Source: Escherichia coli
GTDB lineage: Bacteria > Pseudomonadota > Gammaproteobacteria > Enterobacterales > Enterobacteriaceae
Length of the DNA stretch: 64,000 nt
Assembly: GCF_050920415.1 (NCBI RefSeq)
Contig: NZ_CP169310.1
Strand: one strand, 5' to 3'
Shown here: piece by piece, positions 61,310 to 64,000 of the stretch
Layout of the letters: the number at the start of each line of letters is the position of its first letter
Numbering within the stretch: the first letter of the stretch is position 1
Program-made: the position numbers

Positions 61310-64000
61310 TGACCACTTCAAACTGCGTACTTCGCCGGGGCGTTTAAATACTCAGTTTGAGTATCATACAATTTATCTTTCAACAAAATAGCATATAGCC
61401 AGCTTCAATCTTGCTGTCAGATTGAAGCATTAAAAAGAATGCAGCAAGATAGCTGCATTGTGGATTAATACCCCTGTTTTTCCTTATATGCCTCAACTGC
61501 TTTTTCCAGAACTTCCACCAGTTTCAACCCCTCACGCTCCGCGATATCCCGGATTTCTTGGTCGAAAGCAGGTGTGACACGTGTCGCAAATGCCAGCGTC
61601 CTGTTTGTTTTTCTGGCAGAACGACCATCGCGGCGGGTATATGCCTCGGTAACTATTTGCGTAACCATAGGGTCATGGTTCACAGGCGATAAGTACGCCT
61701 GCGGTATGGCAGAGACTGCCGGTGCTATCTCAGGCGCATTCAGGCTGGTAGCCAATTCGTCGGGGCCTGGGGGTACACCCAGCCCACCACGGGCCCTTTT
61801 AGTTTTAAGTTTTGATGCATCAGCCATTACTCTTCTCCAATCTTATCGATGAGTGCCTGAATAAGTTCATCTGCTCTCTCGTTTAAACCTTTATAACGTG
61901 TTTCTGTCACTGCGAGTCCTGAATTCATCGCTTTTCTGTATGCTGGCTTCTCAAAAAGGCATCCAGATAAAGTTTCATAACCCGCTTCACTGATATATGC
62001 ACGAGCATCCAGCTCTTCCGCTTCGGTACCTACCCGGCTTAAAGCGAAGACCAGTTTTGAACGTGGTACACCTTCTTTTACCAGCGCGTTGAAAACTTTA
62101 ATGGCCGGGACAAGATCGTCAAGGGAGGCCCCCGTTGGCTGAACGATAAGGTCAGCGACCTTAGCAATCTCTGAAGTCCCTTTGCTTGCACGAGCTGGGC
62201 CATCAAGAATGAGAAGGTCAAAATCGCCGGCAGATTCTATCGCCTGCCTTGCTGTTGAAAATACCTCAACTGAAGCAACCGGAGACAAACCCGCTGACAG
62301 ACGTCGACGATGCCACTCAGCACTCGTTGCCTGTTCCAGGTCGAGGTCAGCTAATTTTGTTTTGATGCCACAGGCGGATGCTTCACGTGCTAACGCTCTC
62401 GCTTTAGTGCTTTTGCCCACACCACCTTTCTGGGAAATAAAACCAACTATCCAGGCCATTTAGCCCCCTTCACTTGCTGCTATCTTGCAGCAAACATAAA
62501 TATAAACCTGATTGAGATTAGGAAAAGTAACTCTTTCCGCACAAGATGGCTTGAAGCAAGATTACAGCAATCAAAAATCTAGCAGCAAGATTAAATCATG
62601 CCATTCAGAAGAGTACAGAAATTGACAGCCGAATACTTCTGTCACGTTCACAACAATGAAAGCTACAAGCGTTATGCAATCTTGCTGCAATACTAAAAGA
62701 GAACTCATTCAGGATTGCATCTACATACCTGCACGATTGCAGCAAGCATGCAGGTAGTATAACATGAGTTGAGCGTTATACTATACCATCAGTAGAGCAC
62801 TGTCTGGAAACTATGTCATTATAAGTGCTGGCGTTTGCGTATAGCATGATAGCAGCAATCTATTTTATTGCAGCTATCATGCTGCAATGTTACTGTCAGA
62901 ATCAGGCAGCGCTCGCCGAAGCGATGTAACCGAGCGTAGCGAACGAACTGGCGAGGAAATGTTCCGGCAGATACTTATGTAAACCTCACGGGCTTTGACT
63001 GTCTTGGGGATGCGGACGATTTCCTGGACAGCTTTATCATTCTGGCCCGCATTGTTGGCGGTACGTAAGCATCCACTTGCTGCATGAAGTTTTCTGCGTG
63101 ATGCCCGACTATTTACGCCCATAATACATTTCCGTTTTCATTTTGCCGAAAAAGCCTTCGCATGCGGCATTCACTCTTTCCGACCAGCGATAATGCCACC
63201 TCTGTCACGGTGTATCACTGGTCGTTCAACAGCATTTAACCTTTCTACCACATTATTCAGTATGGTGTTGACCAGTTCAGCGTCGGGAGGTGTACTGAGA
63301 GACCAGCTAACAATTTTTCCATTGAAGCAGCCCACCGCCTGTGATAACCAGACTTTACCTGTAGTCTGTATACACGATCCCTGTGGCATTGAAACAAACA
63401 TATGAAGTGTATTTCGGATATGACTGTACGCTCAGGAAGTACGCCAGATTCCGTCAAAAATTACCTGTAAAGACAGACTTCAGAAAAAACAGTGCTCGCC
63501 GCAGACCGGTGACCGGGCGAAGCCCACGAACCGGCGAGGAAGCGCAATGTATCTGTAGTTACAGTGAGCAGGTACGCCCTGAAGCCTTCATAATCGGTAG
63601 TGTATGCTGTTTTTCCGGAATGATTTATCCACATATCCGGAGGCCCGATCCAGTAAACAGATCCATGAATGATCAACAAAGGATCCATTAAAGATCCCCA
63701 TATCGCTGTAAACCTTGTCACTCATGGGCCGGAACCACGATCACATAAGCTGTGGCATGTTACTGATAAACTGTAACATGCTAATGATAAGCTGTATTCA
63801 GTAATCCATATACTGAAGTAAGTTAATGACATAAACTATGGTCAGTACGCCAGACTCAGTTGTTAAATACAGACTGCAGGTTTTTCTTCAGTCAGTTAGC
63901 AGAGTTCTGACACACGATTTGCTGTTTATTCTTTTACTGTCCACAGGCAGGAGGCTTTCTGGAAAACGAAAATTCAGACATCAAAAAACTGTTCGGCGAG

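Follow-up and report, generated by a model that had tools for sequence, protein, structure and literature searches.

What is the function of a pair of small adjacent genes, set between two groups of short iterated repeats near the end of a 64,000-nucleotide stretch of Escherichia coli DNA (contig NZ_CP169310.1; the whole stretch is hereafter termed the window), and do the repeats belong to the genes that they flank? A first-pass annotation of the window had interpreted the region as a plasmid partition module with centromere-like or operator sites on both sides. Our analysis points, with high probability, to a type Ib plasmid partition cassette, in which a small ParA ATPase is accompanied by a partner that would act as the centromere-binding protein and read palindromic TTGCWGCAA boxes.

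The gene pair and its palindromic boxes

The first gene, parA (61827-62459, minus strand), is an open reading frame (ORF) with the start MAWIVGFISQKGGVGKST, which encodes a type Ib ParA ATPase of 210 residues bearing the deviant Walker A motif KGGVGKS at residues 11-17. This ParA is small, lacks an N-terminal DNA-binding extension, and matches the NCBIfam model NF041546 (ParA_partition) over its full length with an E-value of 1e-26, under the curated cut-off, and ParF of TP228 (4dzz) with an E-value of 6e-7. Directly downstream lies a parB-like gene (61465-61827, minus strand) encoding the candidate centromere-binding protein, termed the partner below. The parA stop codon and the partner start codon have base 61827 in common (TAATG), and this one-base overlap, together with the ORFs, confirms the earlier claim of a translationally coupled pair with a 120-residue partner. 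The partner shows no sequence match in NCBIfam, Pfam or the PDB; PHROGs gave two marginal matches only, to entries with no known function. Judging by sequence, the pair is a plasmid-segregation cassette without prior annotation, consisting of a small ParA ATPase and a small, predicted DNA-binding partner.

The repeats are versions of a single box whose core is the 9-bp palindrome TTGCNGCAA (TTGCWGCAA), with a symmetrised extended consensus close to ATCTTGCWGCAAGAT. Allowing at most one mismatch, ten boxes lie upstream of parA, at 62474, 62485, 62551, 62562, 62580, 62682, 62737, 62850, 62868 and 62879, and one lies downstream of the partner gene, at 61439; at two mismatches there are three further downstream boxes, at 61450, 61422 and 61411, and a decayed copy is found at 61378. 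This enumeration agrees with the coordinates and counts given at first pass, namely at least seven copies upstream and two or three downstream. The description of the repeats as occurring in both orientations holds for the bases flanking the core, and otherwise largely reflects the palindromic nature of the core itself. At the one-mismatch threshold 11 boxes occur in 594 bp of flanking sequence, as against 37 in the other 63.4 kb of the window, which amounts to a 32-fold enrichment (Poisson P 1.6e-13). Shuffled flanks contain on average 0.21 boxes, with a maximum of two, and the par coding sequence is free of boxes. The usual distance between neighbouring boxes is 11 bp, as in the pairs 62474/62485, 62551/62562, 62868/62879, 61439/61450 and 61411/61422. 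No comparable second phased cluster was detected in the 64-kb window; three loose boxes at 35.9 kb, which are unphased and lie inside an ORF of 415 residues, were taken as chance occurrences.

The upstream boxes fall into several groups. The proximal pair, TTGCTGCTA / TTGCAGCAA (62474-62493), forms an inverted repeat with its members 11 bp apart, at positions -34 and -23 from the parA ATG. Its position is kept in the window and in the related loci L002-L005, L007 and L008, four diverged cassettes show hardly any variation in its sequence, and it is a probable operator. Next come three boxes, TTGAAGCAA, TTACAGCAA and TAGCAGCAA (62551-62588), with spacings of 11 and 18 bp, which form a conserved block in the cassette alignment, followed by a perfect box TTGCTGCAA with a half-site 11 bp before it (62671-62690), and by another perfect box, TTGCAGCAA, centred in a longer palindrome TACCTGCA...TGCAGGTA (62726-62756). 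The distal cluster (62850-62887) has three boxes, including the palindromic pair TTGCAGCTATCATGCTGCAA, and is absent by an indel in some relatives. The best candidate for the parA promoter in a position weight matrix (PWM) scan (62499-62526, minus strand) consists of TTTTCC, a 16-bp spacer and TATATT, with the -10 hexamer at 62499-62504, and recurs at the same position in L003, L004 and L008; a transcript from it would begin on the border of the proximal pair of boxes. While the iterated boxes upstream of parA are certain, their overlap with a promoter depends on weak promoter candidates. Within the same upstream region, a box-free segment of 19 bp (62620-62638, plus strand, AATTGACAGCCGAATACTT) is invariant in four cassettes that diverge by about 10-25% around it, and contains a perfect TTGACA on the strand facing away from parA, with no convincing -10 hexamer after it.

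The association of boxes and partner was examined in ten related loci, comprising L002 and nine fetched loci with partner identities ranging from 90% to 38%, with the window as the reference. The fetched loci come from Klebsiella, E. coli (pETEC_73), Enterobacter, Providencia, Yersinia, Xanthomonas (pXcB), an IncP-6 Pseudomonas plasmid, Acidibrevibacterium and Rickettsia. In nine of the ten (partner identity 90% to 45%), boxes of the form WWGCNGCWW are found upstream of parA and right after the partner stop codon, with very few elsewhere. Both the pair at -34/-23 relative to the parA ATG and a pair at +7/+18, or +2/+13, past the partner stop are found again in hosts ranging from E. coli to Xanthomonas. 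Neighbouring boxes are spaced by multiples of 11 bp in 33 of 44 cases, as expected if protein dimers bind next to one another along a single helical face. The recurrence of the boxes with this partner family in distant hosts, at positions kept on either side of the operon, favours the earlier proposal that the repeats are centromere-like or operator sites.

Some of these relatives show peculiarities of their own. An acetobacter plasmid (L011) has five tandem TGCAGCAAGAT units of 11 bp after the partner stop, without a hairpin, and a replication initiator gene, repA, about 68 bp past them. In an Enterobacter ludwigii plasmid (L005, 2969-4327) a gene for a hypothetical protein of 452 residues follows the downstream boxes, in the place taken by parM elsewhere. 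The most distant relative examined, from a Rickettsia bellii plasmid (L010), has no TTGCWGCAA boxes, and its partner has Cys for the otherwise conserved Arg83 of the predicted DNA-reading strand; the coincidence of absent boxes with this substitution is suggestive only. A different palindrome, TACTACTATATA...TATATAGTAGTA, is present upstream of parA in this locus (1700-1875).

The partner family, its predicted fold and a possible mechanism

The partner was recovered on 460 plasmid records by tblastn, and a profile search of a library of 1.84 billion proteins yielded 583 clusters at 50% identity. Relatives are either without a name or labelled 'stability/partitioning determinant', and in none of them was a Pfam domain found. 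When the family is aligned, two parts prove conserved, a basic N-terminal tail, MADxSKLKxKR..LGxPPGPDE..SLNAPEIAP, and the C-terminal 55 residues, with a linker between them that varies. In the AlphaFold2 model of the monomer the first ~75 residues are disordered and are followed by an extended segment and two helices, namely a strand at about 76-84 and helices at 86-99 and 103-118, the helices having predicted local distance difference test (pLDDT) values of 84-91. The best Foldseek matches of this model are ribbon-helix-helix (RHH) proteins, i.e. CopG, ORF56, Arc, NikA and ParG, with target-normalised TM-scores of 0.72-0.79 and a root-mean-square deviation of ~1 A across 36 residues; ParG is a weak fold match at rank 18. 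When PDB sequences were searched with the partner profile, the RHH protein ORF56 ranked first, aligned exactly on the C-terminal RHH segment. An AlphaFold2 model of the dimer, for which two C-terminal domains were joined by a flexible linker into a single chain, has paired strands and a predicted TM-score (pTM) of 0.59. Its best match is single-chain Arc (probability 0.98), followed by the tandem-RHH proteins F TraY and AvtR. These models predict that the partner has the layout of ParG and omega, with a flexible tail and a C-terminal RHH domain for dimerisation and DNA reading. The assignment to type Ib made at first pass is thus favoured by the small ParA with its Walker A motif at residues 11-17, by the ParA model and ParF matches, and by a small downstream partner for which the models give an RHH domain and a flexible tail.

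By analogy with type Ib systems (PMC3074162, PMC3130281, PMC7602700), the partner would dimerise through its C-terminal RHH domain and bind the palindromic TTGCWGCAA box, with boxes at 11 bp or multiples thereof placing neighbouring dimers on one helix face and allowing cooperative binding. The arrays upstream of parA would make up the partition complex, and the pair beside the ribosome-binding site would repress the par promoter. The basic N-terminal tail (MADxSKLKxKR...) may stimulate the ATPase of nucleoid-bound ParA, so that plasmid copies would be spaced out across the nucleoid in the manner of other ParA systems, and the plasmid stabilised. The pair just past the partner stop might be both a second binding site and the terminator hairpin of the operon, while the more distal downstream boxes may once have covered part of the promoter of a neighbouring parM/parR operon that was lost here by insertion of an insertion sequence (IS).

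Several points weigh against this interpretation. The Foldseek E-values of the partner are non-significant, because the RHH domain is tiny, and sequence profiles connect the partner to an RHH protein at an E-value of only 0.23. The parA promoter is not firmly placed, given that a stricter consensus scan returned none and the PWM scan two weak candidates. In the window the downstream box set is partly decayed. The cassette also lies amid IS debris, which makes its activity in its own plasmid only putative. Finally, no binding, repression or stability data on the partner family were found in the searchable literature, and a search on the partner accessions and the box sequence gave nothing relevant, the older primary papers on Rms149 and pCoo being outside its coverage.

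The analysis offers a function for a 'hypothetical protein' that belongs to no Pfam or NCBIfam family and is found alongside ParA on 460 or more sequenced plasmids, in hosts such as Klebsiella, E. coli, Salmonella, Xanthomonas and Pseudomonas, and including virulence plasmids of enterotoxigenic E. coli (ETEC) and IncP-6 KPC resistance plasmids. For this widespread, unannotated family we propose the palindromic, helically phased box as centromere and operator. The 11-bp-phased TTGCWGCAA box as its probable DNA target should improve plasmid annotation and the prediction of partition incompatibility.

Relationship to known partition systems

The closest named relative of the partner by sequence is the ParB encoded in the parAB(C) locus of IncP-6/IncG plasmids (the Rms149, pCOL-1 and p10265-KPC type). 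The ParB of the IncP-6 plasmid is 48% identical to the partner over 97% of its length (tblastn E-value 5e-21) and is co-aligned with it in the family alignment. Its locus has the same type of box, TTGCTGCTA / TAGCAGCTA, with a palindromic pair before parA and another after parB, but only two boxes on each side. In IncP-6/IncG plasmids the operon also includes parC as its third gene and is followed by repA, and neither of these genes follows the partner in the window or in its enterobacterial relatives. Papers on IncP-6 plasmids (PMC4785139, PMC11265224) do not describe the cis sites.

The ParF-ParG-parH system of TP228 resembles the cassette in that ParF is a detectable relative of its ParA and that the partner has the predicted layout of ParG, with a flexible N-terminal tail and a C-terminal RHH domain; ParG itself gives no sequence or profile match to the partner. 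The parH site is known only from upstream of the TP228 operon, whereas the boxes of the window are 9-bp palindromes found on both sides. It comprises an array of short degenerate boxes, which are tetramers with AT-rich spacers (PMC3130281). Membership in the TP228 system was rejected for want of both a ParG homologue and a tetramer-box parH.

In its layout the cassette resembles par2 of pB171 (parC1-parA-parB-parC2), of which the copy on pMAR2 was examined: a small ParA gene is followed by that of a small partner, repeats are present on both sides, and there is a link to ParM/ParR. The pB171-type ParA is 29% identical to that of the window, while the 91-residue ParB has no detectable similarity to the partner (BLASTP E-value 3.2; hhalign probability 0.15) and the pMAR2 repeats are short A/T-rich units unrelated to the boxes. 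Moreover, parMR of pB171 is divergent, with the upstream site in common, whereas that of the partner family lies downstream in tandem. With its ParA distant and its ParB unrelated, membership in par2 was rejected, leaving a likeness of layout only. Set against the parC and parH sites, the cassette matches the arrangement of pB171 par2, and the repeat sequences of pMAR2 par2 and TP228 parH are different.

Type Ib systems of the IncI complex (pESBL/R64 and pMS7163B/R621a) likewise combine a small ParA, a partner of ~100 residues without known motif, and arrays both upstream and downstream. That of pESBL has been characterised by electrophoretic mobility shift assays, foci and stabilisation of mini-F (PMC7602700), and that of pMS7163B is supported by transposon-directed insertion-site sequencing (PMC10286972). 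Their repeat is an octamer, GATAACAA, their ParA is 26% identical to that of the window, and their partner is unrelated to the one described here; other repeats and the lack of partner similarity exclude the cassette from this group (pMS7163B, R621a, pESBL). The delta/omega system of pSM19035, likened here by description only, has an RHH centromere-binding protein and phased short repeats that are also operators, with arrays at more than one place (PMC7602700, PMC9499535). It differs in being a Firmicute system with heptad repeats, and in that omega is a global regulator whose gene does not directly follow that of the ATPase as the partner gene does here. The view that two-sided repeats are less usual, which had accompanied the first-pass annotation, did not stand, since such arrays are known for pB171, pSM19035 and pESBL (PMC7602700) and for pMF1 (PMC3235114), and were seen directly in pMAR2 and pMS7163B. 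The cassette leaves the current understanding of plasmid partition unchanged.

Downstream boxes, rival readings and plasmid context

The boxes on the downstream side admit more than one interpretation. The pair at 61439 and 61450 (61430-61459, minus strand) lies 6 bp past the partner stop, at the site where relatives keep a pair at +7/+18 or +2/+13, and forms a perfect inverted repeat that yields an 8-bp RNA hairpin followed by the T-run UUCUUUUU. Folded as RNA, it has an energy of -13.2 kcal/mol (z -4.3) and was also picked up by a terminator scan; it is a plausible intrinsic terminator, and the equivalent hairpin in Enterobacter (L005) has a 15-bp stem and U7. Beyond it, the degenerate boxes at 61422, 61411 and 61378 (61378-61430) fall, in the alignment, at positions +46 and +79, where relatives have good boxes. 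The +79 box in L003 and L004 overlaps the parM promoter, TAGATT with a 16-bp spacer and TATAAT. In pETEC_73, pCoo, a Providencia IncC plasmid and others, a co-directional parM/parR operon follows ~240 bp downstream, and 302 of 377 plasmid records have this tandem parA-partner-parM-parR order, that is, a co-directional double par locus (for instance L004 2876-4484 and L006 2834-4433). What persists in the window is a stub of the lost parM/parR leader (61321-61375, minus strand), in which the -10 hexamer has decayed and a single ACTCAAACTGAGTA inverted repeat is left, similar in kind to those upstream of parM in pMAR2. As read from these remains, the IS3-family end has removed parM/parR in the window and the +46 and +79 boxes have decayed.

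These observations give some weight to an alternative that denies the downstream repeats the role of a second centromere and takes the first pair as simply a terminator and the others as former operators for cross-regulation of the parM/parR promoter by the partner, of which the window would retain a functionless relic. We consider this possible, though somewhat less probable than not. It accounts for the hairpin and U-run directly past the partner stop, which are stronger in relatives, for the box over the parM promoter, for the prevalence of the tandem form, and for the decay of the downstream copies in the window where parMR is gone; in addition, ParB of pB171 reportedly represses the neighbouring parMR promoter, as Ringgaard is said to have found in 2007. 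Yet termination does not require a copy of the operator sequence, and downstream boxes are also found where no parMR follows, namely in L005, L007, L008/L009 and L011, the last with its hairpin-less tandem units. Because they are present in such relatives, the downstream repeats would be part of the type Ib module itself. This alternative can, moreover, hold together with the type Ib reading of the cassette, and the downstream repeats may serve as a second centromere-like site, as a terminator or as a cross-regulatory operator, or in all three roles at once. A more tentative proposal is that the partner's boxes have a triple role, as centromere and operator upstream, as terminator hairpin, and as operator overlying a co-directional parM/parR promoter, so that ParA- and actin-type systems in tandem would be cross-regulated by one RHH protein, with the window carrying a decayed version that has lost the actin-type half to an IS. 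The tandem locus is also a compact system in which to study the combination of type I and type II segregation modules.

That the boxes are autoregulatory operators only, with the true centromere elsewhere on the plasmid, is improbable. RHH proteins are indeed classic repressors, and the best-conserved pair lies between the candidate promoter and the ribosome-binding site, but ten boxes across 420 bp go far beyond what repression needs, the 64-kb window has no other phased cluster to serve as the centromere, and upstream repeats of type Ib systems act as both centromere and operator (PMC3074162). The notion that the repeats are RepFIB/RepFIA iterons or IS parts lying next to the par genes by chance, an origin that the first-pass annotation had named as fatal to its reading, is effectively refuted: RepFIB repB is ~1.5 kb off and IS fragments flank the cassette, but the boxes accompany par genes beside at least six replicon types in three proteobacterial classes, the RepFIB iterons have a different sequence (CTGACTACAGTTTATATT), and IS homology ends at ~61320 and ~62975, outside the box regions.

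The preferred reading, a type Ib partition cassette, is also consistent with the plasmid context. Large E. coli IncFIA/IncFIB plasmids match the segment at 100% identity, which corroborates the earlier assignment to plasmid backbone. One of them is pCFSAN004179G, where RepFIB repB begins just beyond the position of the window end. Approximately 350 PLSDB records contain a ~90% identical block covering 61318-62958 of the window. In different plasmids the cassette adjoins RepFIB, RepFIA (repE), IncI-gamma/K, IncC, IncFII and IncP-6 replicons; given this range of neighbours and the difference of the RepFIB iterons, the repeats belong to the par cassette and not to the replicon. The module had been placed correctly at first pass, although the conserved block is slightly larger, at ~61320-62975. 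In alignments, homology to relatives ends on the left at the terminal repeat of an IS3-family 3' end (61043-61320, plus strand), which consists of a C-terminal transposase fragment and the repeat ...GGCCAGTTTTTGTTGACCACTTCA, and on the right at ~62975. A Klebsiella grimontii match (H30), which covers the upstream region only and lies in an IS1-flanked fragment, was set aside as uninformative.

The cassette forms an island in IS remains (58792-61320 and 62976-63400; the same in L001, 1-7500), which include the IS66 family, an IS110-like fragment (60715-60987), the IS3-family end and an IS3-type integrase fragment (63171-63401). An Rfam search for structured RNA in 61000-64000 gave two chance miRNA matches only. 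At the right edge of the cassette, outside the box system, lies a conserved element of ~50 bp (62907-62958, plus strand), which elsewhere occurs between rep genes and unrelated par operons. Its 48-bp form, GCTCGCCG...(N31)...GGCGAGGAA, is present twice on the plus strand of the window, at 62911-62958 and 63494-63541, in two sequence variants, with further copies in L016 (2504-2549), L017 (2505-2550) and L013 (27721-27767). It has no annotation, no Rfam match and no significant single-stranded-DNA fold. The first variant alone is found in more than 3000 plasmid records, lying between repE and sopA in F-like plasmids and also upstream of the type Ia parA of IncR plasmids, and the second is upstream of RepFIB in both the window and pMAR2. 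About 4 kb past the position of the window end, the identical plasmid L001 (NZ_CP012501.1) carries a gene for the ST-I heat-stable enterotoxin (13879-14097) near its RepFIB replicon, so that a virulence plasmid with an enterotoxin gene is the probable source of the window.

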